Shown: positions 18,418-55,820, counted from the first letter of the stretch. The stretch is DNA of 61,593 nucleotides from a virus (IMGVR_UViG_3300022074_000038:1-61593); one strand, 5' to 3'. A program made the numbers and translations. The notes: generated by a model from the sequence alone, not told the origin.

Positions 18418-18888
18418 TTACGGCTGGACCGCTGTATTGAATGCCTGTGCATACATCACTGTTATAACAACTGATCCCGCATTAGTACCTGCACTTGAGG
18501 TAGCTGTTAGTTTTAAATCAGATGCGCCAGTGTTTTTCCATGTAAGTGTACCACCGCCAGAAGCGCCTAACGCCTTGATACCTACAGTAGTTCCAGAAGC
18601 GACAGCATTAACGAGAGTCGCTGCACCACCTACAGTATCACCAACACTAATATTTGTCGTGGTGTTAGCAGCCACTTCTAAATCAATAATTATATCTACG
18701 ATTTTTGAGTTGGCAGGGATTACTACATTTGTGGCTTCTGCTGCGACAGCACCGCCAGAAATATCCATTACATGTTGTTGAGTCATTACAACATAACCTA
18801 CGTTTGCTATGTCTGACCCAACAGTAGTGCCCGTTGTGTTGCGAATGTTGCCAGCCCGTATAGGACCAGAAAAAGTAGTAGTACCCAT
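18418..18888 (-). CDS. Virion structural (head decoration-like) protein
   Basis: 156 aa; MGTTTFSGPIR N-terminus and IPANSKIVDI; AGGAG RBS. Confidence 0.6.
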   Translation of the reverse strand: MGTTTFSGPIRAGNIRNTTGTTVGSDIANVGYVVMTQQHVMDISGGAVAAEATNVVIPANSKIVDIIIDLEVAANTTTNISVGDTVGGAATLVNAVASGTTVGIKALGASGGGTLTWKNTGASDLKLTATSSAGTNAGSVVITVMYAQAFNTAVQP

Positions 18889-18960
18889 GTTGATCTCCTG
18901 TCTGGGTTAGTCAAACACACCATGTGTTTGTCAGGGATGCATATACAATACTAGATATTT

Positions 18961-36806: not shown

Positions 36807-37064
36807 GTGAGTGTATGTGATAACAAGACTTATCGCGTTCTACTACATCCTAATACAGGAAAAGTAGAAATAACATGTTTTGGCCTAGAAGCTATTGACG
36901 CGGCAGCATTAGGTGACTATATAAACATGTGTGACACACCCGAGTGGGTACAACGAAAGGTAGCTGTACTAACTATGACTAGCGATAAACCACCGACTGA
37001 GACAGTCAAAGGTGTTGGTCGGCGTATAGATACAAATACTTTTTGGTTATTCCACGAAAGGTAG
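36807..37064 (+). CDS. Hypothetical protein
   Basis: 85 aa; PEWVQRKVAVLTM...VKGVG resembles the C-terminus of the upstream protein (PEEISGKMAVLSM...VAGVG). Confidence 0.6.
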   Translation: MSVCDNKTYRVLLHPNTGKVEITCFGLEAIDAAALGDYINMCDTPEWVQRKVAVLTMTSDKPPTETVKGVGRRIDTNTFWLFHER

Positions 37065-37127
37065 TGTTTCACTACCATTGCGGGGGCGGGAGATCGCCCT
37101 CGTCGATGCCAGTTCTTAGGGGGGTTT

Positions 37128-37412
37128 ATGACACCGGAAGCCAAGGTAAAGAAAAAAGTAGTAAGTATCCTGAAGGAAGTGGGTGCGTATTATTTTTATC
37201 CTGTCACAGGTGGATACGGACGTAGTGGTGTTCCCGATATAATCGTTTGTCACAAAGGTAAGTTTGTAGGGATTGAATGCAAAGCGGGGAAAAATAAACC
37301 CACTGCATTACAGCAAAAGAACCTACACGATATCATAGAGGCAGGTGGTATAGCACTGGTTATCAATGAAGAAAGTATGAGCCTCATAGAGGCGATTTTT
37401 AAAAAACTCTAA
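37128..37412 (+). CDS. VRR-NUC domain nuclease / resolvase
   Basis: TPEAKVK, GVPDII, IECKAG..KPTALQ, GGIALV. Confidence 0.85.
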   Translation: MTPEAKVKKKVVSILKEVGAYYFYPVTGGYGRSGVPDIIVCHKGKFVGIECKAGKNKPTALQQKNLHDIIEAGGIALVINEESMSLIEAIFKKL

Positions 37413-37428
37413 ATGGAGAATAGCAAAC

Positions 37429-38265
37429 ATGGCTATCACAGAAAAGAAAATAGTAGAACCCTCTGCACAAACACTGCAAATCAGTCAGTTTAAAAAAGGG
37501 CGTGTTCGTTTACGGATGGTTGGTACAACGCCGTTGTACTTTAACAGCATGAGTGCAAAGACAATGAGAGATCTTGCTGCGCCTAAAGAAAAAATAAAAG
37601 GGAAGAAAAGCACAGGAATGAAGCACGATCCTGTTAAAGAGTTTTATGATTCCGCGTACAAAAAAGATTTTGGGGAGACAATGTTGTGTTTCCCTGCACC
37701 GGGGGTTAAAGCAGCTATGGCTACAGCGGCCCTAGAAACGGAGAACGTATCTAAAGCATCCGTGCAGCGTTTGATTTTTATGCCGCAAACTCATATTCAA
37801 ATTTGGGGTAAGCCACAATTAAAAACTGACATTGTTCGCACGGCAGATATTAAACGTACCCCAGATGTGAGGACACGTTGTTATTTACCGCGTTGGTGTG
37901 CGGAAGTTGATATCGCTTATGTCCAACCGACTTTAAGTGCTTATGGTATTGTTTCATTACTCAGCAATGCAGGCGCAATTATTGGCATTGGCGATTTTCG
38001 ACAAGAGAAAGGTCGCGGTTCATACGGCACGTTTGTTGTAGGTACAATGGACGAAGACGGCCATGATGATTGGACTGATCTTATGCCAGACGGTAGCTCT
38101 CCACAAAAAGTTTGGCAAGAGTTGATGTCTGAGGGGCGTGAGGTCCAACAGGCGGCTATGAGCAACCCTGAATATGCTGACGAAGTTACAGCGGATCTAG
38201 TTGAGTACGTTAAATCTGAGATGGATCGTAGGTTTGATCCAGACGTTCAGATAGCCGCAGAATAA
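37429..38265 (+). CDS. Stand-alone RAMP / Cas7-like RNA-binding protein (putative effector of the adjacent GGY-NN array)
   Basis: RAMP hallmarks: beta1 LRMVGTTPLYF, FPAPGVKAAM (compare PgSslKG), C-terminal Gly-rich loop GIGDFRQEKGRGSYGTF. Confidence 0.7.
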   Translation: MAITEKKIVEPSAQTLQISQFKKGRVRLRMVGTTPLYFNSMSAKTMRDLAAPKEKIKGKKSTGMKHDPVKEFYDSAYKKDFGETMLCFPAPGVKAAMATAALETENVSKASVQRLIFMPQTHIQIWGKPQLKTDIVRTADIKRTPDVRTRCYLPRWCAEVDIAYVQPTLSAYGIVSLLSNAGAIIGIGDFRQEKGRGSYGTFVVGTMDEDGHDDWTDLMPDGSSPQKVWQELMSEGREVQQAAMSNPEYADEVTADLVEYVKSEMDRRFDPDVQIAAE

Positions 38266-38289
38266 GCAAGCAGCGGTATCACTTTATTT

Positions 38290-38889
38290 GGTCGGGGTCC
38301 GGTACGATATGGTTGGGCGTGGAGAGTTACGGTGCGGCAAGGCGGTCGAGGCGCGGTATGGAGAGGTACGTTTCGTTCAGGTGGGGCGCGTTCAGGCGGT
38401 CGTGGTTCGGGTCGGTTTGGTCGGGTCGGGTGTGGTCAGTCAAGGCGGTCGAGGCGTGTTAGGTTGAGGCCTGTCTGGGTCCGTTTAGGTCCGGTCTGGC
38501 GGTCGAGGCGCGGTGAGTTGGGTTAAGGCACGGACGGGCGTGGCACGGCGGTCATGGTGTGGCATAGCAAGGCGAGGTTAGGCAACGGTTTGGCTAGGCG
38601 GTCTAGGCGCGGCGCGCTCGGCGCGGTTTGGTTTGGTCTGGATGGCTTGTTTGGATGCGGCAGGGCGGTCAAGTTAAGGCTTGTTGGGTCGAGGTGGCGA
38701 ACGGCGGGTTGCGGCAAGGCGGTCGGGGAACGGTTCGGTGAGGCATGGTAGCCGAGGTGAGGCTGGGTGAGTTTGGGTGTGGTTTTGGCAAGGCGGTCAC
38801 GGCACGGCTAGGTGCGGTCAGTTTAGGCGCGGTGGGGTTAGGCGGTTATGGCACGTCCCGATGCGGCGGGGCACGGTCGGGCTAGGCAC
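38290..38889 (+). ncRNA. GGY-NN pentamer array segmented by GGCGGTY anchors; putative guide-RNA array
   Basis: Anchors at 38341, 38395, 38444, 38498, 38547, 38597, 38664, 38718, 38792 and 38841; 7 of the 9 spacings equal 9+5n; no credible ORF. Confidence 0.75.
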
Positions 38890-38916
38890 TAGAATATAAT
38901 TTGGATTGGAGAAGAT

Positions 38917-39411
38917 ATGAATTTTAAGAAGAGTGATAAGCAAAGGCTTATAAATGAATATGCATCAGAAACGGGTAAGAATACCTTAGATGTTGCAGAC
39001 ATACGTGTTTGGTTAAAAGAAAAACCTAATCACGAATTTTACGAGTATGTCTTTGGTGCTTCTGATGATAAGAAGATTGAAGAATACGAGAAAGATCGTA
39101 TCTCAGGGTTAATTCGTGGTTTACGTATAACTGTAAAACATGAAGTGACAAAAGATGTTAAAGTTAGGATTAAAGTAGCAGATTACCCTGCTTACATTAG
39201 CCCTATGAAAGATAGGAAGCAGGGGGGCGGGTACGTACCCTTTGATCCTAATAGTGAGACTTCTCAACAGGAGTTAAGATTACAGGCAGCGCAGGCTATG
39301 GCTGCATGGATTTCACGTTATCGTGGGTGTGTTGAACACTCCGGTTACGACATTACTCCAATGGAAGAACTCGTTCATAAATTACGTGGCTTAGATGAAG
39401 AAGCCGCTTAA
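38917..39411 (+). CDS. Hypothetical protein, putative accessory of the RAMP-array locus
   Basis: 164 aa, starting 28 nt after the array; GGAGAAGAT-ATG RBS. Confidence 0.7.
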   Translation: MNFKKSDKQRLINEYASETGKNTLDVADIRVWLKEKPNHEFYEYVFGASDDKKIEEYEKDRISGLIRGLRITVKHEVTKDVKVRIKVADYPAYISPMKDRKQGGGYVPFDPNSETSQQELRLQAAQAMAAWISRYRGCVEHSGYDITPMEELVHKLRGLDEEAA

Positions 39412-39431
39412 ACCCTAAAGTTTAAAGGAGA

Positions 39432-39872
39432 ATGGCTATGGGTAAGAAAGCAGAAAAGGTTTGGGCGTACATTGTGAAGCATCCAACGGCCTCTAATGCA
39501 AAAATTGCTAAAGCGTGTAAGTGTTCGCCATCTTATATACACCTGCTAAAGAAAAAGATCGGCACACCGAAAGAGGTGTTGGAAGAAGTAAATCTAACTG
39601 TAACACGTTCCGAAGTCCTCGACACAGCTAAAGACTATGTGACGAAGGATCGCGCTGCGGAGCATGGTGACATGGAGACTAACTTCAACACCATTTCGCG
39701 ATACTGGTCTGTGCATCTGGATGCGCAAATAACCCCGACAGATGTTGCGGTTATGATGAACCTGCTCAAGGTTGCGCGGATAAAGTCTAACCCAAAGTCT
39801 AAAGATAATTGGGTTGATGGTGCAGGGTACATGGCTTGCGGTGGAGAGATTGCCAGTGCCTTACGTGCGTAA
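39432..39872 (+). CDS. HTH + DUF6378-like protein
   Basis: N-terminal HTH (ASNAKIAKACKCSPSYI); DRAAEHG..NF..I...W, DVAVMM.LLKVAR, DNWVDGAGY. Confidence 0.7.
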   Translation: MAMGKKAEKVWAYIVKHPTASNAKIAKACKCSPSYIHLLKKKIGTPKEVLEEVNLTVTRSEVLDTAKDYVTKDRAAEHGDMETNFNTISRYWSVHLDAQITPTDVAVMMNLLKVARIKSNPKSKDNWVDGAGYMACGGEIASALRA

Positions 39873-39985
39873 GCCTAGTAAGCCTAGTAAGTCCAAGAAA
39901 GCAAAGATTGGGGCGGGTGTTTATGACGCTCGCTTCAACGACAAAAAAGTAACGCTATCCAAAGCACCGTGGGAGAACGACGAAG

Positions 39986-41812
39986 ATGGACATAGTGACG
40001 TTGGATTTCGAGACGTACTACGACAAGGAGTACAGCCTGTCGAAGATGACGACTGAAGAATACGTGCGTGATAAGCGTTTTGAGGTTATAGGCCTTGCGA
40101 TTAAAAAGAACAGTAAGCCTACTAAATGGATTACCAGACCAGCACTAATAGAAAGTTTACTATCACACATAGACTTCTCTAACAGTGCTATACTTTGCCA
40201 TAACACTATGTTTGATGGCGCAATACTTTCATGGCGGTACGGTGTAAAACCAAAAGTTTGGTTTGATACAATGTGTATGAGCCGTGCCCTACACGGTATA
40301 GAAACCAGTGCTTCTTTAAAAGCGGTAGCGGAACGCTACGGCGTAGGTGTTAAAGGTACAGAAGTTAATAACGCTAAAGGTAAACGCCAATCCGATTTTA
40401 CTGTACAAGAGCTTGCAAGCTACGGCGAATATGGAAAAAACGATGTAGATTTAACTCATAATTTATTTAGGATTATGGGGCAGGCGTTCCCTCGACAAGA
40501 ATTAAAGTTGATTGATTTAACTCTACGGATGTTCATTGAACCCACATTAGATTTGGATTTAGGATTGCTTGAGCAGCATTTAGAAGACACTCGTGAACGC
40601 AAAGACAAACTATTGCGCGACGCAAATGTCACCGACAAAAAAGATTTGATGTCAAACCCTAAGTTCGCCGACATGCTAAGAGAGCTTGGTGTGGAACCAC
40701 CTATGAAAATAAGCCCAACTACAGGCAAGCAGACATACGCTTTAGCCAAAGCTGATGAAGGTTTTAAAGCCTTACAAGAACATGAAGATGATAGGGTACA
40801 AACTTTAGTCGCTGCACGTTTGGGTAGCAAAAGTACCTTAGAGGAAACACGCACCGAGAGGTTTATATCTATTAGTAAACGTGGGCTTCTTCCGGTCCCT
40901 GTTAGATACTACGCTGCTCACACAGGTAGATGGGGCGGGGCCGATAAGATAAACTTACAAAATTTACCGAGCCGTGGGCCAAATGCAAAGAAGCTGAAAA
41001 AAGCATTGGTTGCTCCCGAAGGCTATACGCTCATAGATGCAGACAGCGCGCAGATTGAAGCTAGAGTTCTGGCATGGTTTGCAGGGCAAGATGATCTTAC
41101 AACTGCATTCGCAAACGGTGAGGATGTGTACATAAAAATGGCTGCACGTATATATGGATGTGAAGAAGAGGACGTTACGAAAGATCAACGCTTTGTAGGT
41201 AAAACTACTATCCTTGGCGCAGGCTACGGCATGGGGGCTGAGAAGTTTGGCACACAATTAAAGACGTTTGGGTATGAAGTATCACCTGACGAAGCAAGAA
41301 GAATTATAAAAATTTACCGCGATGCTAACTATAAAATTAGTAAGGTATGGCGCGATGCCCATTACATGGTGCAGCAGCTTACCAATGGTAGATCTGCTAT
41401 GTTTGGTCGAAAGGGCGTTGTTAAGGTATCGGGAGATAGCAGTTCATTAGTTATGCCTAATGGCCTTAGTATTATTTATGATAATCTAAATAGTGAACAA
41501 GGTGAAAAAGGTCTTGAGTATAGTTATAAAACTCGACGTGGGCGTACTAGAATATACGGCGGTAAGGTAATTGAGAACGTGTGCCAAGCACTAGCACGTT
41601 GTATTATAGGTGAGCAAATGTTAAGAATAAGTAAGAAACGCAAGGTTGTGCTTACCGTACACGACTCGATTGTTTGCTGTGTGAAGGATGAAGAAGTACC
41701 CGAAGCGCAAGCGTTTATTGAGGATTGTATGCGATGGACGCCTGACTGGGCAGTGGGCCTACCTGTAGATTGCGAGAGCGGCACAGGTAAATCATACGGA
41801 GATTGTGAGTGA
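39986..41812 (+). CDS. polA: DNA polymerase family A with 3'-5' exonuclease
   Basis: ExoI LDFETY, HNTMFD; TGRW..NLQNLP; motif A DSAQIEAR; motif B RFVGKTTILGAGYG; motif C TVHDS. Confidence 0.93.
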   Translation: MDIVTLDFETYYDKEYSLSKMTTEEYVRDKRFEVIGLAIKKNSKPTKWITRPALIESLLSHIDFSNSAILCHNTMFDGAILSWRYGVKPKVWFDTMCMSRALHGIETSASLKAVAERYGVGVKGTEVNNAKGKRQSDFTVQELASYGEYGKNDVDLTHNLFRIMGQAFPRQELKLIDLTLRMFIEPTLDLDLGLLEQHLEDTRERKDKLLRDANVTDKKDLMSNPKFADMLRELGVEPPMKISPTTGKQTYALAKADEGFKALQEHEDDRVQTLVAARLGSKSTLEETRTERFISISKRGLLPVPVRYYAAHTGRWGGADKINLQNLPSRGPNAKKLKKALVAPEGYTLIDADSAQIEARVLAWFAGQDDLTTAFANGEDVYIKMAARIYGCEEEDVTKDQRFVGKTTILGAGYGMGAEKFGTQLKTFGYEVSPDEARRIIKIYRDANYKISKVWRDAHYMVQQLTNGRSAMFGRKGVVKVSGDSSSLVMPNGLSIIYDNLNSEQGEKGLEYSYKTRRGRTRIYGGKVIENVCQALARCIIGEQMLRISKKRKVVLTVHDSIVCCVKDEEVPEAQAFIEDCMRWTPDWAVGLPVDCESGTGKSYGDCE

Positions 41813-49070: not shown

Positions 49071-52000
49071 TTAGTAAAGTTGCAAGCCTTGGTCAAATTC
49101 CTTCAAGCTTTGCTCCATAAATGGAGTGTAAGTCATACCGCCGCGCATCTTTTCTGTAGTTCTACCAAAAGAACCAAGTGATCTGCGCTTTGTATCTCCA
49201 ATTATAAGTGACTTACGTGCGCCTTCTGGAAGACCTGAATTAAATCTTGCTATCTTTTCATCAACTCTGCGAACTTCTTCAAAATCGCCCTCACGGTAAG
49301 CCATGTTTCTTTGGCGCAGTAGTTTACTACGGCGACTGTTAATAGCTTCCTGTCTACGGCGATTGTTTTTATTAAACTCAAGCTGCTGTATATATGCTTG
49401 AGGTGCAAATCCTGCCGCCTGCATTACTATATTGTATGGATTTATGTCTTCTGTGATCGGATCACCACGGCGAGTTGTTGCGCCCTCTCGCGCAAACCGT
49501 TCCGCTTTTGAAAAGTTACGAAGAGCAGAGGGGGCCATAGCCTCAAGACCCCTACGTACTTCTCCACTCGCAACATCTTTTACCCCTCTACTCATAGATA
49601 AATATGTGCCAAGTACAGGGCCACCTAGCTGTTCCGCTAAAGTCCAAAGTGCATCTTGATCTTTATCAATGATCGGTGCGCGATATAGTAGGCTGTTCAT
49701 GGAAACACGATTTGCTACGTCTACACCTAATATTTCATTTGCGAGGCCACCGTATATACCCTCGCCGACTACTTTACGTGTGGCGGCTTCAAAGTCATCT
49801 TCGTCGTCATCCCTAAACAAGTTGTAGATAGCACCGAAAGTTCCCATCAACGGCATCCCACCAAGCCCTGACAGCATCCCCGTCATCACTAAAAAGTTAC
49901 GCGATCCTGCACGAGCAGCTTTCCTGCTGTCAGCTATATCTTGTGCTTTTTGTAGCGACACACCTTCGTCAGCCATAATCTTATCTACATTGGTGGTCTT
50001 AATACTCTCTTTCGCAAGACGCTCCATCATGTAATATTTACTGATTGCAAAGCGTTTAAATAAGAATAGCACGTTACCTATACCAGATTGCGCTACAATC
50101 GGGCGTCCTGCCGCCGCAGTTGCACCCAACGTAAACTCAGTATCATCAATAGCATTCTGTGCAGCCTGCTTATAGTCTGCGTCTGTTGGATTTTTATTCT
50201 TTTTGAGGAGTTTTTTAACTTCTAATAAATAAGACGCCTGTAGAGTTGCTTCCCTGTTAATGCGTTCTGAATGGTGGAACATAAAACTAGATATACGGTT
50301 CACAGATTCTAGCGGGGCGTCCCTACCAATATCTAAATTTTCTTGTGTAATAGATTGATTGAATTGAGCTTGATCCAGCCCACTCTCAACAAGAATATCC
50401 ATGCGTACATCTTTACCAAAACGCTCTAAAAGTTGTTGAGGGGTATAATTTGCGATTGTTTTACCTTGAACACCCATATTTATTTCTTGCTCTACAGGCT
50501 GACCGTCTGGGCCAGTCACCATAACAATGCGAGTAGTTGGTGCGTTCATCAAGGCTCGCATGGCATCGCCATATGCTGCTGTTGTAGCACGTATGCCATG
50601 TTTACCTGCTAAGATAGGCATGGCACTCATTGCTACGTCAAAAAACGTAATCGCTGCTGACGATAAGTTGAGGCCCATAGTCATACCGAACCCTAAGCTA
50701 GTAGCAACTTGTGACCAACGAGGTACATTTGGGCTTTGTGCAAATGTAGCGATCTTATCTAGTTTTTGCGCAGTCATCGCCGTTTCAGGATTAGTTAAAT
50801 ACCCAGCTTCTGGATCAGCTAACTTCTTGCGGAAATTTTCTATTTCTGCTGCGGAACGTAGTTGTACTAGCTGGCGGTTAAGATCGCGGCCTTTCTCTTT
50901 AAGCATTGTATATGCGTCAAATTCTTGACCAAGGATACCTGTCGGTGTCGTATCCCCGATAAAACCTCGTATACCTTTACGCCGCCTAAAGTTCTGCATA
51001 AACGACCGCTCGGGCATTGCATCAAGCGCAAGGTCCACAAGCTGCTGCATAGCCTGTTTATAATCTTCATCCGAATTAAAGTTTTCGCGTTGCAGTTGTA
51101 CAGTTTCTAAAACATTACGTACAAAGCTAGTGGATGGCGCACGTTCAAAGTTCATAGCTCTTGAAGCTTCAGTAACTTCTACATCCGTACCGCCCACTTT
51201 GGAAACCATATCTCTGGCTTGCTGCGCTTTGCGTAGGGTCGGGTAATATTCTACGTACAGCTCTGGTTGTCCTGTATCTGGATCAGGCGCAGTATACACC
51301 AGTCTGTAATTACCTTTACGCTGCAAGGGGAAATAAGGTCTAATTACACCGCTATCTTTTTCTAGTAACTCACGTAAACGTGCAAACGCTGTTTTACGTA
51401 CCGCTGCGTCTGGAATAGTAGCCGCGAGCCGTGCGTCTAAAGCGGCAATGATGTCATCGTAAGTATCTTGGAAGTAATTACGTAGTTGTCTATATAGTTC
51501 CTGACCTTTTTTATCCATACTCAGGTACTGCTTGCGTAGCTGTTTATATTCAGCCATGCGTTGCTTATCATCTTTAAAAGTAGCTGTGTATTTTTTATCA
51601 GTGCGGGATGGATCTACTTTTAAATAAGTGCTTCGCGGAATTATATTATCTAATGTTCTAGCGTGATTTTTGTTTTTACGTTGCCATTGCTTTAAATCAT
51701 ACGTCATTGAACCTAGAATTTCGGTCTTTTCCCTAAGCCGACCACTCATGCGATTAATGATAGTATTTAATTCTTTAGCAAACGGTATCTTATCTTGTGC
51801 TTTTTCGGTTAAAATATTTACGGGTAGCACGTTTAAATACCAGCTTTTAGCAGTTTTAGCTATTCCTTCGTTAAACATAACATCCGATGCATCTAAAACT
51901 TTGTCTTTAACATCAAAATTAGACATGCTTTGTAAGAGGCGTGAACTACCTTCTTTTGTGCCTGCTTCTAGGAGTATATCTGGCGCTGCGCGTGTTGCGG

Positions 52001-55000
52001 GTGAGGGAGCCAACATCCCCTGTATAACCCGATCTATCTCTGTTAGCGCGCTTGGTGATGGAGATAAACGTAACACTTTACGAATGACACGCATAACAGC
52101 ATCGTAATACTTCTCTATGCCTGATCGCTTACCGCCATCTACTCGAAGAAGCGTAAGTGCGCTTCTAAACTCGGGATTACCTTGAGACTCAGCTACAAAC
52201 TCGTCCAAGTTTTTTGTGCCGTATACTTCACCAAATTGCTCACGCGCTGCGTTAAGCAATGCTTGTAATTGTTTCGTCTCTGGTAATGAGGGGTTAGCTA
52301 TTGCAGCAGAAGTAGCCGCATGTGACATCTCGTGCAGTATAGTATGCACATTCATGCCACGGTTTGCGTCGATCTGTATCGTATTTGTTTCTGGACTAAA
52401 CAGACCAGCAGCGGTGCGCCCCACAACCTGAGACAAATCATCAACCACTTGCACTTGTGTATCACCAACAACATTTGCAAACGCTGCCGCTATCCTACGA
52501 ACATCTTCAACTTGGTTTGTTGAGGCTATAGCGTTTAACGCAAAACCTAGATCCCCACGTTGTAGTGCGTTACGAATGCTTGGAAGTAACGCTTGATCTA
52601 GCCCATGCACAGGATCAATAAGTAGGAAACCTAGCTCACTTTCAGTGTAAGCAAAACTATCATAGAAATCCATAAGCTCTTCGTCGGTTAGAGCTTTTTT
52701 AGTATTAGGGTCTATGAATACATAGTCATCTTGCTTGGGTACTTTGCGTTTCTTAAAGCCCAAACCAAGCAAGTAAGAATCAAAAGTTGTTTGACCTTTT
52801 ATAAGTTCAGTTGCACCAACCGCGCCTTCTGCTCGCATCTCTTGATCTGGTGCGGCAGGATCGCGAGTCTGTGCTTCTAGTTTAAGCGCATCAAGCTCAC
52901 GATCCATTTGTTTTTGAAACGCTCTGTCATCTTTGCGTTTGATACTTTTGGCTGCTTTAGTTACAGCAATAACCGCATCGGATGGATTAAACTTAGATGT
53001 ATCTCTACGTGCCAATACATTCGCATCGCGTGTCTTTACAAAGGCTTGACGAGACAGATTATCAAACACCCACTTCCGTGCATCCATAGCAGACTTTTGA
53101 GTCATGCCCTTGTAGAAGGCAAAGTCAGCCGTCATATCTTCAGATTTTAAATCTTCTTCTGTTTTTATGGGTTTACTATCTTTATCTAAATTATAGTCTT
53201 TTACAAAGTCCAATTTAAAAGTTTGAGTTGGCCCAATAGCACTAACCATACCCATTTCGGCGAGAGCATCAACAGGTCTACGGAACCGTTTAAAGTATAA
53301 CTTTGCGGCTTTAGCTTGCACGTCGAGTTCTTTGTCAGAGGTTTCTAGTAACTCTGCAACACCTTCTTTATCTACAGCAGTTGTGGTTTCTGGCGCAGAG
53401 CGTGGATCTAGTTGCGTGTCGTGATACTCCCGAATCTGTGGCTGCTTACCCCTATTGTTTTCAAATGTTCGCTCAATACGCGCTTGTGCTACTGCGTCTC
53501 GCTCTGCTTCTACTGCCTGTAGCTGTTCTTGTGGGACAGGCGCGGCTTGTATTAGCGGTGCAGCGGGTACTTGTACAGCCGCAGGTATAACTTGCTCTGC
53601 GGCCCCCGTCACTGTCCCGCCAATACCCGTTTTAGGTGCAGGAACTTTTAATGGTTCAGGTTGCCCTTCAGCTAAAACCGCCTTCCTTTTGTTTAATTCT
53701 TCTGGCTCTACAAGAACTTCCGCAGGTGTATCGTATCCTGATTCTTCTTTTGCATCTCTAATTTTTTGTGCATATAACTTTGGGTCGGCGGCGATACGCT
53801 TTCGCTCTGCCGCTAATGCTTCAGAATCTTTTTTTAATGCACTTGGCTGTTCTCTTGCTGGATCTAATGCACTTGGCTGTTCTCCTGCTGGATCTGTAGT
53901 TCTACCAGAAGGCAGCAGATCTGTTCCCACTCTTTTATTGTTAGGTTCAACAGGGGTTTCGGCACTGTCAATTCCACTTTGTGCCCCTGTGCTTCCATCC
54001 AAGCCTGTTCTACTACTTGGAATGCTAACTCCAGCTTTTTCTGCGATAGGTTTAACATCGGCACCTTTCAACTTATCTAGATATTCTTTAACTTTAGGTG
54101 AACTACCCCCATTCTTTACATATAATTCTAGTTCTTCACGTACTTTTGGATCATCAGAAGACAACCCTACAATGGATCGCTTTGCGCCTCTTACGATATG
54201 TGCGTATGGTTGGACGCCTAACTCTTCAACCAAAAATTCTTTTGTAACCTTGTTTTCTTCTGGTATAATTTCTGGGCTTGGTTTTGAATCAACCTGTATA
54301 TTTTCACCAGTCTGCTCGCTCTTAGCCGCCGCAGCTAAGTTTTTTCCTACTCGTTTTTTAGCTATTATTGCTTCAATAAGTTCTGGAGAATACTCTGTGT
54401 CTAGCTCTTGTCTTATAAAGTCTTCATCCAAATTAGGATCTGTGAGACGAGGATCTGTGGCTATTGCTGCTTCTACTTCTGAAGCAGAGAAAACGGATTG
54501 TTTTTTAAGGTATTCATCAGTTTTAGCCGCTGCTTTACCATCCGCATTTTCAGCTTCTCTTGTAACCGCAGCTTGTTGATTTGTGCTGGTATCTATCTCA
54601 GCCGCTGCCGCTGCTTGGGCTTCATTAGTTTCTTGTGCTTTACCTTCGGGAGGCGCAGGGTTTGCAGCGTTCCGTGCTTCGGTTTGTTGTGCTGGAGTTG
54701 CTTCGGTTTGTTGTGCTGGAGCTGCTTCGGTTTGTTGTGCTGGAGCTGCTTCGGTTTGTTGTGCTGGAGTTGTTGTATCTACGATGGGTTCTACAGCGCC
54801 AGTATCGGTATCAGTTTCAACTTCTAACGCGGCTTTCTTTTTAGCGTCTAGCGCGGCTTTCTTTTCCGCTTTTAATCTAGCTTTTCTCTCAGCCCCGGTT
54901 TCAGGAATACCTTGAAACGCACCGAATGTAGCTCGTGTACCGCCACCAATTAAACCGCCTGCGATAGCAGCTTCACGATATTCTGCGATGGCATCGTCAC

Positions 55001-55820
55001 TGTCGATGGCTAAACCAGCTTGCGCTCGCTCCATCACTTGCTGACCGACTTCTGTTAAACCTTCAGTGGTCGCACCGCCACCTGCACGGCTCGCTGTGCG
55101 AGTAAATATTGATTTGCCAAGAGGACGTAGAACACCACCCAGCAAGATCTTATCAGCTAAACCTTCAAGCGTAGCTTGTCCAAACGTAGCGGTAAGAGCG
55201 GCTCCAATATCTACACTTGTTTTTCTACCTGCTGCAACTTCGTCTTCTTGCCGTTGAATGTTGTTACCAAACAAAATCGGCGCAGTCGCTCCTGCCGCTG
55301 CCGCAACACCGACACCAAATCCTGCTAAACCTGTGGCTCCTGCTACAGCAGGCGCTAATGCCGCTGCGCCTAAACCAAGACCTAATTGAGGTATTTGTTC
55401 ACCAACAACTTGACCTGCAAAGGTGAACGCATCGCCAAAACTATCTACGTCAGTAGATTGCAGTCTTTCGGGCTGCTCAAGAAGTAATTCGCCTAGTCTT
55501 TGTCTGGCTTTTTCTTCCGTATCTTGTCCGTATTGCGCTAGAAATCCTAGTCCCGCCTGCTCTCCCGCAGTGCCTACTGTTTCACCGATTGCGCTTTTAA
55601 TTTGTTGATATCCACGGCGTAACCCACCACGAACAGCGGTTTCATCATCGGACTCAAACTCTTCCCCAAAAACAGATTGATACTTTTGCCCATAATCAAC
55701 ACGTTCACCGTCTAAATATTGACGTATTTTAACAAAATCTTCATTGCTAGGGTTATCTCCTGCAATGTTAAAGTTGTAGCTGCGCTGCGTTTGTGGGTCG
55801 GTGTATTGGTATACGCCCAT
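49071..55820 (-). CDS. Very large internal virion / DNA-ejection protein with a zincin-like motif
   Basis: 2249 aa; hydrophobic Gly/Ala N-terminal region; ILHEMSH...DEFVAE; last gene of the internal-protein cluster. Confidence 0.75.
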   Translation of the reverse strand: MGVYQYTDPQTQRSYNFNIAGDNPSNEDFVKIRQYLDGERVDYGQKYQSVFGEEFESDDETAVRGGLRRGYQQIKSAIGETVGTAGEQAGLGFLAQYGQDTEEKARQRLGELLLEQPERLQSTDVDSFGDAFTFAGQVVGEQIPQLGLGLGAAALAPAVAGATGLAGFGVGVAAAAGATAPILFGNNIQRQEDEVAAGRKTSVDIGAALTATFGQATLEGLADKILLGGVLRPLGKSIFTRTASRAGGGATTEGLTEVGQQVMERAQAGLAIDSDDAIAEYREAAIAGGLIGGGTRATFGAFQGIPETGAERKARLKAEKKAALDAKKKAALEVETDTDTGAVEPIVDTTTPAQQTEAAPAQQTEAAPAQQTEATPAQQTEARNAANPAPPEGKAQETNEAQAAAAAEIDTSTNQQAAVTREAENADGKAAAKTDEYLKKQSVFSASEVEAAIATDPRLTDPNLDEDFIRQELDTEYSPELIEAIIAKKRVGKNLAAAAKSEQTGENIQVDSKPSPEIIPEENKVTKEFLVEELGVQPYAHIVRGAKRSIVGLSSDDPKVREELELYVKNGGSSPKVKEYLDKLKGADVKPIAEKAGVSIPSSRTGLDGSTGAQSGIDSAETPVEPNNKRVGTDLLPSGRTTDPAGEQPSALDPAREQPSALKKDSEALAAERKRIAADPKLYAQKIRDAKEESGYDTPAEVLVEPEELNKRKAVLAEGQPEPLKVPAPKTGIGGTVTGAAEQVIPAAVQVPAAPLIQAAPVPQEQLQAVEAERDAVAQARIERTFENNRGKQPQIREYHDTQLDPRSAPETTTAVDKEGVAELLETSDKELDVQAKAAKLYFKRFRRPVDALAEMGMVSAIGPTQTFKLDFVKDYNLDKDSKPIKTEEDLKSEDMTADFAFYKGMTQKSAMDARKWVFDNLSRQAFVKTRDANVLARRDTSKFNPSDAVIAVTKAAKSIKRKDDRAFQKQMDRELDALKLEAQTRDPAAPDQEMRAEGAVGATELIKGQTTFDSYLLGLGFKKRKVPKQDDYVFIDPNTKKALTDEELMDFYDSFAYTESELGFLLIDPVHGLDQALLPSIRNALQRGDLGFALNAIASTNQVEDVRRIAAAFANVVGDTQVQVVDDLSQVVGRTAAGLFSPETNTIQIDANRGMNVHTILHEMSHAATSAAIANPSLPETKQLQALLNAAREQFGEVYGTKNLDEFVAESQGNPEFRSALTLLRVDGGKRSGIEKYYDAVMRVIRKVLRLSPSPSALTEIDRVIQGMLAPSPATRAAPDILLEAGTKEGSSRLLQSMSNFDVKDKVLDASDVMFNEGIAKTAKSWYLNVLPVNILTEKAQDKIPFAKELNTIINRMSGRLREKTEILGSMTYDLKQWQRKNKNHARTLDNIIPRSTYLKVDPSRTDKKYTATFKDDKQRMAEYKQLRKQYLSMDKKGQELYRQLRNYFQDTYDDIIAALDARLAATIPDAAVRKTAFARLRELLEKDSGVIRPYFPLQRKGNYRLVYTAPDPDTGQPELYVEYYPTLRKAQQARDMVSKVGGTDVEVTEASRAMNFERAPSTSFVRNVLETVQLQRENFNSDEDYKQAMQQLVDLALDAMPERSFMQNFRRRKGIRGFIGDTTPTGILGQEFDAYTMLKEKGRDLNRQLVQLRSAAEIENFRKKLADPEAGYLTNPETAMTAQKLDKIATFAQSPNVPRWSQVATSLGFGMTMGLNLSSAAITFFDVAMSAMPILAGKHGIRATTAAYGDAMRALMNAPTTRIVMVTGPDGQPVEQEINMGVQGKTIANYTPQQLLERFGKDVRMDILVESGLDQAQFNQSITQENLDIGRDAPLESVNRISSFMFHHSERINREATLQASYLLEVKKLLKKNKNPTDADYKQAAQNAIDDTEFTLGATAAAGRPIVAQSGIGNVLFLFKRFAISKYYMMERLAKESIKTTNVDKIMADEGVSLQKAQDIADSRKAARAGSRNFLVMTGMLSGLGGMPLMGTFGAIYNLFRDDDEDDFEAATRKVVGEGIYGGLANEILGVDVANRVSMNSLLYRAPIIDKDQDALWTLAEQLGGPVLGTYLSMSRGVKDVASGEVRRGLEAMAPSALRNFSKAERFAREGATTRRGDPITEDINPYNIVMQAAGFAPQAYIQQLEFNKNNRRRQEAINSRRSKLLRQRNMAYREGDFEEVRRVDEKIARFNSGLPEGARKSLIIGDTKRRSLGSFGRTTEKMRGGMTYTPFMEQSLKEFDQGLQLY
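54675..54770 (-). repeat. 4 x 24-bp tandem repeat (xPAQQTEA)
   Basis: TGCTTCGGTTTGTTGTGCTGGAGY repeated 4 times. Confidence 0.9.

Follow-up and report, generated by a model that had tools for sequence, protein, structure and literature searches.

VIPR systems and the locus under study

VIPR (Viral Interference Programmable Repeat) systems are described as phage-borne systems formed by a minimal RAMP protein (Vipr) and by guide RNAs (vrRNAs) that consist of 9-16 pentamers, each of them with a GGY triplet followed by two bases, NN (10.64898/2026.04.26.720920). The NN pairs bind double-stranded DNA, and one base is skipped per unit (10.64898/2026.04.26.720920). In VIPR systems, the vrRNAs are located in long intergenic stretches at the flanks of vipr, an accessory vap gene accompanies it, and the vrRNAs appear as small RNAs that copurify with Vipr and guide its binding to DNA. 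The present work deals with a locus of the virus record IMGVR_UViG_3300022074_000038:1-61593, which is estimated to be complete and whose 61,593 bases, taken as a whole, are here called the window. It is very probable that this locus is a VIPR guide-RNA array of an uncultured marine phage, with the following parts: (i) a vipr gene (positions 37429-38265); (ii) a staggered vrRNA array (38290-38889); and (iii) a conserved candidate accessory open reading frame (ORF) of 164 amino acids (aa) (38917-39411). The array is not a new kind of element, as elements of this kind were first described in 2026 preprints.

In general terms, seven types of VIPR with varied array layouts have been described, among them a "staggered" array (10.64898/2026.04.26.720920) in which, according to the legend of fig. 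S18 of that preprint, consecutive vrRNAs overlap by 1 nt, the end of one being the start of the next. The small-RNA sequencing given there confirmed two other array forms, not the staggered one (10.64898/2026.04.26.720920), and the word "marine" is absent from its main text. Two further preprints describe, respectively, (i) vrRNAs that act as decoys or are aimed at rival vipr genes in the competition between phages and satellites (10.64898/2026.10.15.759431); and (ii) a language-model survey that recovers period-5 VIPR arrays (10.64898/2026.10.21.760802).

The locus resembles VIPR type II, represented by Escherichia phage SUSP1 and a Pseudomonas fulva prophage (10.64898/2026.04.26.720920; 10.64898/2026.04.26.720927), in that (i) a small RAMP protein adjoins GGY/NN vrRNAs with 9-16 pentamers per guide; (ii) the Asp, the aromatic residue and the Arg of the G-loop are kept, together with the Arg of the thumb; and (iii) the 1-nt skip falls on the wobble base, the targets lie in other mobile elements and the own genome holds no match. 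In the SUSP1 genome, the vipr gene sits between two intergenic regions in which GGYNN/GTYNN pentamers are followed by non-periodic tails. Unlike SUSP1, the locus has a Vipr of 278 aa (195 aa in SUSP1) with an extra C-terminal helical part; it lacks the structured tail of ~40 nt per guide, its 11 guides being abutted and separated only by the heptamer GGCGGTC; and its candidate accessory ORF shows no likeness to vap1. The host range, in turn, is marine and uncultured, unlike that of SUSP1 and the P. fulva prophage. With the staggered arrays, as far as the legend of fig. S18 describes them, the locus would share the 1-nt overlap, which the GGCG|GTC junction and a spacing of 5n-1 nt give. The distinctive traits are the tail-less staggered layout with a 7-nt register-shifting anchor, the longer Vipr, the candidate accessory ORF, and natural targets among genes for the head and for packaging in HK97-type phages of marine Alphaproteobacteria.

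The backbones of class 1 CRISPR complexes (Cas7/Csm3 on CRISPR RNA) are also alike in their fold, in the fixed guide bases per protomer, in the periodically displaced bases and in their modular turnover. Nevertheless, here the period is 5 with three displaced bases, instead of 6 with one, and the guide is noncontiguous. Besides, CRISPR-type direct repeats of at least 20 nt alternating with spacers were not found in the array, where only a motif of 7 nt is conserved and recurs, and no Cas family is present among the neighbours scanned.

On the trp leader, the TRAP protein forms a ring that binds 11 G/UAG triplets spaced by 2-3 nt. It is similar in that an oligomer reads a triplet about every 5 nt over some 50 nt of RNA, and different in that it is a ring, not a filament, and has neither information-bearing variable positions nor a nucleic-acid target. 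A TRAP-like ring binder was dropped as a candidate once the RAMP fold and the targets had been found. Actually, among the other candidates considered (two-tier G-quadruplexes, an R-loop origin, a TRAP-like ring), none explains the free NN, the 5n-1 punctuation and the codon-phased matches.

Organization of the array

The vipr gene and the 164-aa ORF, both on the + strand, are separated by a gap of 651 bp, about 600 bases of which have a G+C content of 64% versus 38-50% in the flanks. The gap begins with a short spacer without periodicity that runs from the vipr stop codon to the array (38266-38289, +), and the array starts 25 nt after that stop codon, on the same strand. As a whole, the array (38290-38889, +) consists of about 120 G-(G/T)-Y-N-N pentamers in 11 units and is rich in G on the strand that also encodes the neighbouring genes.

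The autocorrelation of the bases has maxima at lags of 5, 10 and 15 nt, and also at 49 and 54, with a value of 0.448 at lag 5 versus 0.23-0.24 at lags 2 and 3. The period-5 score of the array is 0.191, with a maximum of 0.036 in 596 other 600-nt segments of the genome and of 0.054 in 500 surrogates. Likewise, a dynamic-programming parse of positions 38286-38890 yields 122 units joined by 105 steps of 5 nt, 13 of 4 nt and 3 of 6 nt, and scores 194 versus 62 +/- 6 (maximum 81) in 200 shuffles. Over the 106 pentamers of the window, the entropies of positions 1-5 are 0.15, 1.09, 1.29, 1.92 and 1.96 bits. The relatives, namely 80 retrieved IMG/VR contigs with a Vipr identity of 51-99%, give 0.24, 1.12, 1.25, 1.95 and 1.99 bits (2209 pentamers, 259 distinct units). 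The consensus is G, G/T, Y, N, N, position 2 being G in 71% and T in 22% of the cases, and the units contain 9-15 pentamers in the window and 7-15, with a mode of 11, among the 259 regular units of the relatives.

Ten GGCGGTY anchors punctuate the array, at positions 38341, 38395, 38444, 38498, 38547, 38597, 38664, 38718, 38792 and 38841. Their spacings are 54, 49, 54, 49, 50, 67, 54, 74 and 49 nt, and seven of the nine equal 5n-1 (49, 54 or 74 nt), because every anchor is a pentamer that lacks one base (GGCG|GTC). In the parse, all ten anchors are 4-nt steps and the register slips by -1 at every one of them. In surrogates (500 first-order Markov sequences), by comparison, such anchors number 1.01 on average and never more than 5, and outside the array the same motif has only 6 occurrences on the + and 11 on the - strand of the 61.6-kb genome, scattered at chance level. 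Among the relatives, GGCGGTC is the commonest 7-mer in most arrays, and 301 of the 395 distinct units between anchors have a length of 5n-1. A logo of 493 anchor contexts has this heptamer as the only conserved element, with a weak preference for A before it, and the phase of the Gs shifts by -1 across it.

A preliminary description, made from the sequence of the window, had listed these anchors and spacings, a unit form common to seven of the latter, an example unit at 38792 and a leader unit; all of them read as described. It had also pointed out that the first three bases of the pentamer are constrained while the last two are free, and had proposed autocorrelation as a check on the period, and the values given above bear out both points. 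Its further argument, that the region is unlike a decaying satellite, holds as well. A functionless satellite left by replication slippage could be read into the irregularity of some units and into the output of Tandem Repeats Finder, which gives only four short fragments with periods of 9-15. Yet the grammar and the 7-nt anchor are kept down to a Vipr identity of 51% while the units themselves differ, and positions 1-3 are held while 4-5 are free. This conservation already contradicts a decaying satellite, whose probability is almost negligible.

It is equally hard to credit that the region encodes a glycine/arginine-rich repeat peptide, which must be regarded as extremely improbable. ORFs of 40-65 aa do exist in all three + frames, as expected because stop codons are rare in G-rich DNA, but no + strand ORF wholly inside the array exceeds 65 aa. 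Furthermore, unit lengths differ by 5 nt, the frame changes at every anchor, near-identical phages exchange whole units, and the period is 5, not 3.

The RNA fold of the array is no more stable than that of shuffles (z = +1.36), and scans for promoters and terminators give no more sites than in shuffles. Within unit 6 (38613-38625, +), a 5-bp GC hairpin with a T-rich run after it resembles a terminator; it is likely due to chance because it is not kept in relative L002. As a separate observation, 13 relatives examined (for instance, L006:4838-4885, L012:3909-3950 and L064:2995-3042, plus ten other loci) have a GC-rich hairpin after the vipr stop codon and before the first anchor, which is absent from the window and from L002. 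Its sequence varies by sub-clade with the pairing kept, and GGTCA(A/C)GG comes next in 12 of the 13 (not in L034). This hairpin could act as an attenuator or as a landmark on the 5' side of the array.

The Vipr protein

The vipr gene (37429-38265, +) encodes a 278-aa RAMP (Cas7-like) protein, presumed to form the filament that binds the vrRNAs; this assignment is based on the fold search, the HHalign comparison and an invariant G-loop. The RAMP fold of a Vipr comprises an RRM core, a glycine-rich loop and a thumb. The protein belongs to no Pfam, NCBIfam or PADLOC family. When its AlphaFold model (pLDDT 64.6) is compared with the PDB by Foldseek, 30 matches at E<=0.001 are obtained and, among the matches listed, all are type III Csm or type VII effector complexes, the best fold match being 8wfx_I (E 5.6e-5). 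Another match, 6ifn_E (E 2.6e-4), is one of the query chains used in the VIPR preprint (10.64898/2026.04.26.720920). The sequence profile matches weakly the PDB chain 36pp_D, "SUSP1 Vipr protein" (E 0.02), and HHalign against SUSP1 Vipr gives a probability of 87.8% (E 3.3e-6) over the G-loop.

The glycine-rich loop GIGDFRQEKGxGSxG is invariant in 21 homologs. In the HHalign alignment, residues D189, F190, R191 and R150, all four invariant in the same 21 homologs, stand opposite D177, W178, R179 and R138 of SUSP1, and H17 of SUSP1 Vipr falls outside the aligned part. In the cryo-electron microscopy structure described for SUSP1, D177, W178 and R179 (G-loop) and R138 (thumb) hold G1, G2 and Y3, and the aromatic site of P. 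fulva Vipr is Y (10.64898/2026.04.26.720927).

In a large protein collection, the 278-aa protein has 1342 relatives at E<=0.001, one of them on a 377-kb contig of a Sulfitobacter metagenome-assembled genome, and an Atlas search with Vipr added only viral clusters without names. Among cultured actinophages, Gordonia phage Ecliptus encodes, after its gene 19, a homolog with 30% identity by tblastn, which is followed by a 261-bp gap that can also be read as GGYNN pentamers (L204:3620-3840). Isolated Gordonia phages seem to carry the same kind of system, as probably do the Mycobacterium phages that were also matched.

A module that moves together

A G-rich period-5 array lies 3' of the vipr homolog in 77 of the 80 loci of the relatives, the remaining three ending less than 200 nt after the gene, and the 164-aa ORF is found downstream of vipr in 69 of the 80. 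The other neighbours (a small Hjc-like nuclease, polA, DUF6378 and others) are kept in only 8-14 of the 80 loci. Besides, one sub-clade has the order terminase, vipr, array, 164-aa ORF, second array and portal, and another has an array upstream of vipr. On account of this co-occurrence and of these sub-clades with other gene orders, vipr, the array and the 164-aa ORF move together through changing genome contexts.

The 164-aa ORF (38917-39411, +) is, on the basis of co-occurrence, a candidate vipr-accessory protein (vap). At the set limit it matches no family in Pfam, PHROGs or NCBIfam, and the Atlas search was also without usable result; what appears are chance-level matches to PADLOC RdrA (E 0.014) and to designed repeat proteins of the PDB.

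The genome context bears on another explanation, namely that the array is a replication origin or R-loop zone in which the G-rich non-template strand primes DNA synthesis, much as pentameric G-rich switch regions might suggest by their likeness. A family A DNA polymerase gene is situated some 1.1 kb downstream of the array, whose GC skew is +0.42 to +0.48 and whose G content is 44%, all of which would suit an origin. However, the array travels with vipr and the 164-aa ORF and not with replication genes: polA is nearby in only 13 of the 80 loci, and in one sub-clade the array is placed between the terminase and portal genes. An origin would also leave unexplained the two free bases per pentamer, the 5n-1 punctuation and the codon-phased foreign matches dealt with below, and it is most unlikely as an explanation of the locus.

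Turnover of whole units

The units of the window can be compared with those of L002, a relative with 99% Vipr identity and identical flanks. In L002, other units stand in place of units 2-4 and 8, and there is one insertion and one loss of a unit, in all cases at anchors. The change is, then, a cassette turnover of whole units, not decay, and the gain, loss and exchange of units that the preliminary description had proposed to look for in related phages are indeed seen.

As delimited by the parse, the array opens on the + strand, shared by all its units, with a leader unit of 10 pentamers with GGCGG at its end (38296-38345), for which the local search described below finds no target, the best match being 16/20. 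It is followed by unit 1 (38345-38399; 11 pentamers), the guide against a terminase large-subunit gene. Units 2 (38399-38448; 10 pentamers), 3 (38448-38502; 11 pentamers) and 4 (38502-38551; 10 pentamers) have other units in their place in L002 and no target in the local search. Then come two irregular units that are near-identical in L002: unit 5 (38551-38601), with one 6-nt step, and unit 6 (38601-38668), of 68 nt and with two 4-nt steps. Unit 7 (38668-38722; 11 pentamers) is the sole window unit that recurs letter for letter in L002-L005. Unit 8 (38722-38796), of 75 nt, contains one 4-nt and one 6-nt step that cancel each other out, and is replaced in L002. Finally, unit 9 (38796-38845; 10 pentamers) equals the last unit of L002, displaced by one inserted unit, and the terminal unit (38845-38889; 9 pentamers), which has no closing anchor, is absent from L002.

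Targets of the guides

The guides searched were the 259 distinct regular units of the window and its relatives, with their NN strings joined by 0-3 wildcards. The target database was a local one of 185 records from relatives and terminase loci, with the arrays masked and a total of 3.60 Mb over both strands; the 80 terminase loci were searched unmasked, as no array-like run in their high-GC DNA has more than 2 anchors. Significance was set at a per-guide binomial E<1e-3, and reversed and shuffled guides served as controls. With one base skipped, 12 of the 259 guides are significant, versus 0, 1 and 0 guides at skips of 0, 2 and 3, respectively; reversed and shuffled guides give no significant match under any skip rule. 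In 11 of the 12 skip-1 matches, the match is on the sense strand, the first NN base is at codon position 1 and the skipped base is the wobble base. This fits DNA targeting, since a match on the sense strand cannot pair with mRNA. The preliminary description had stated that a 5-nt period is not codon-compatible, which is true of the array; the decoded guide, on the contrary, has a 3-nt period that follows the codons of the target.

The targets comprise (i) three sites within 120 nt in the ATPase part of a terminase large-subunit gene; (ii) a prohead S78 protease; (iii) the small terminase subunit; (iv) the vipr gene of relatives; and (v) one doubtful antisense match. The target genes belong to HK97-type phages, some of them inside Rhodobacterales genomes.

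The clearest case within the window is unit 1 (matching part 38345-38394), as identified by the parse and the target scan. Its 10 NN pairs match a terminase gene (L134:6406) in 20 of 20 bases. Always at the same site, the match is 19/20 in 23 and 18/20 in 7 of 80 loci of the terminase large subunit (TerL), and 19/20 in 7 of the 80 vipr loci; a contig of Paracoccaceae and a chromosome of Rhodobacteraceae also reach 19/20, and two more alphaproteobacterial records 18/20. All these matches keep the reading frame and skip the wobble base. The variant TC of unit 1 fits the Ser-codon form of the site, and the GC of the homologous unit of L008 fits the Ala-codon form; in this homolog, six of the ten GGY triplets have drifted. 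The idea that information is stored in the free dinucleotides, put forward in the preliminary description, is thus supported both by the VIPR grammar and by the 20/20 match of the NN string of unit 1. The terminase of the window itself is of a different family from the target of unit 1, and none of the six regular window units (6/6) targets its own genome at an NN match of at least 80%, the best self match being 70-78%.

Among the relatives, a guide of 8 NN pairs at L061:4824 matches, in frame and in 16 of 16 bases, the vipr genes of other phages just after the G-loop (L058:1908, L060:912, L063:2058 and L064:2815), its own vipr gene not being among the best matches. This guide fits the VIPR-against-VIPR targeting described in preprints.

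It might be argued that the array is a decoy or sponge RNA that binds its own or a rival Vipr without useful targets, like the solo vrRNAs of satellites, which redirect the VIPR of a helper. Ten of the 11 window units have no target in 3.6 Mb, vrRNA decoys and anti-vipr vrRNAs have been described (10.64898/2026.10.15.759431), and the clade includes the L061 guide that matches vipr genes of relatives. But in-frame matches to essential head and packaging genes exist for unit 1 and for eleven more guides, the array and its own vipr gene are inherited together, and a database so small and biased can be expected to lack targets. A decoy is very unlikely. The likely role of the VIPR array described here is to silence genes for packaging and for the head in competing phages or prophages that share its host.

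Contigs from RNA libraries

Low-depth contigs of three marine RNA libraries, all from one study, overlap with vipr, with the array and with the ORF, and those of a fourth library, whose RNA label is guessed, cover only 38338-39118. In these contigs, all six loose ends, i.e., the points within 38338-38597 where a contig leaves the window sequence, lie at most 7 nt from an anchor. This suggests co-occurring strains with the same units in other orders, rather than RNA processing.

Proposed mechanism and its weighing

The steps of the following mechanism are carried over from the SUSP1 and P. fulva preprints and would apply to this locus as follows: (i) the + strand would be transcribed through vipr, the array and the ORF, where no promoter or terminator signal rises above shuffles; (ii) one Vipr protomer would cover each pentamer, the G-loop (D189, F190, R191) and the thumb (R150) holding G1, G/T2 and Y3, and N4N5 being left exposed; (iii) the one-base slip at GGCG|GTC would stop the filament and delimit a guide of 9-15 pentamers; and (iv) the NN pairs would bind one strand of double-stranded DNA, with every third base skipped, and transcription of the target would be blocked. 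The third step is a proposal of this work: since the register slips at the anchor, the filament could not run on and one guide would therefore be delimited.

The anchor may, in this manner, delimit or process the guides, which fits the legend on staggered arrays. As to the overall interpretation of the preliminary description, information storage is upheld, and the anchors stay as putative processing sites. A bolder version, tentative and rather doubtful, is that the register slip itself is the punctuation of the array: each unit would end up in a ribonucleoprotein of its own, with ends fixed by filament protection and trimming; no structured tail, ribozyme or dedicated nuclease would be needed, and either the additional C-terminal part of Vipr or the 164-aa ORF may take part in it. 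If this were true, guide RNAs would be made by a route not yet demonstrated in any RNA-guided system, and a probably lytic marine phage would carry an 11-guide programme against packaging genes of prophages resident in Rhodobacterales.

Several points weigh against the identification of the locus as a VIPR array. Regarding the proteins, the similarity to a proven Vipr spans 54 columns only, the structural model is of middling quality (pLDDT 64.6; TM-scores 0.26-0.51), and the 164-aa ORF has no detectable relation to SUSP1 vap1 by HHalign (probability 0.8%). Regarding the array, the invariant structured 3' tail of SUSP1-type vrRNAs, a pseudoknot, is absent, only GGCGGTC being conserved in the 493 contexts. 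Regarding the targets, the 12 significant guides represent about 9 guide families, not 12 independent events, and the other ten units of the window have no target in the biased 3.60-Mb database. In 44 clusters of related units, moreover, the NN positions change fastest (0.22 and 0.19 per site versus 0.10 and 0.14 at positions 2-3). Lastly, the RNA-library contigs show neither transcription nor strand nor RNA ends, and the parts that they do not cover are uninformative.

The proposition that NN is conserved among related guides was tried and rejected: it holds for unit 1 and its L008 homolog but not generally, over the 44 clusters. The conservation of NN in unit 1 is an example and not a rule, because the NN positions are those that change fastest among related unit pairs.

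Other features of the genome

A 94-aa ORF for a Hjc/VRR-NUC-like nuclease (37128-37412, +) ends 17 nt before vipr and has weak PADLOC matches to Cas4 and PD-(D/E)xK models (E 1e-3 to 4e-2). It is probably outside the VIPR module because it is kept only in the 12 closest loci. The genome also encodes a family A DNA polymerase, an SNF2 helicase, a DUF927 primase-helicase-like protein and a T4-type terminase, as well as a 2249-aa ORF (49071-55820, -) with a large-polyvalent-protein domain (LPD39). In the structural-gene block there is a Mu-gpT-DE RNA (18886-18936, -; 57.3 bits), the sole Rfam match of the whole genome at gathering score; in the region 37000-40500, Rfam gives no match at E<=10. 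No tRNA genes were found in the window. A search for a tyrosine integrase (PF00589) found none in the window, nor in three target-clade records, and on that ground neither the window phage nor the target-clade phage is called temperate. GenBank phages searched by blastn, with the array and an 8-kb region as queries, gave no match.

Significance

The newly described noncontiguous RNA-guide code also operates, or at the least leaves the sequence traces expected from it, in uncultured marine phages that form a large clade remote from the systems of Escherichia and Pseudomonas studied to date. The locus and its relatives provide an independent check, by sequence only, of the 1-nt-skip rule and of its wobble phasing. 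In addition, the compact tail-less array is a setting in which to test how staggered vrRNAs are cut out. Concrete natural targets can now be named, i.e., the terminase, prohead protease and vipr genes of HK97-type phages in Rhodobacterales genomes, and these targets point to a conflict of phage against prophage in the sea.

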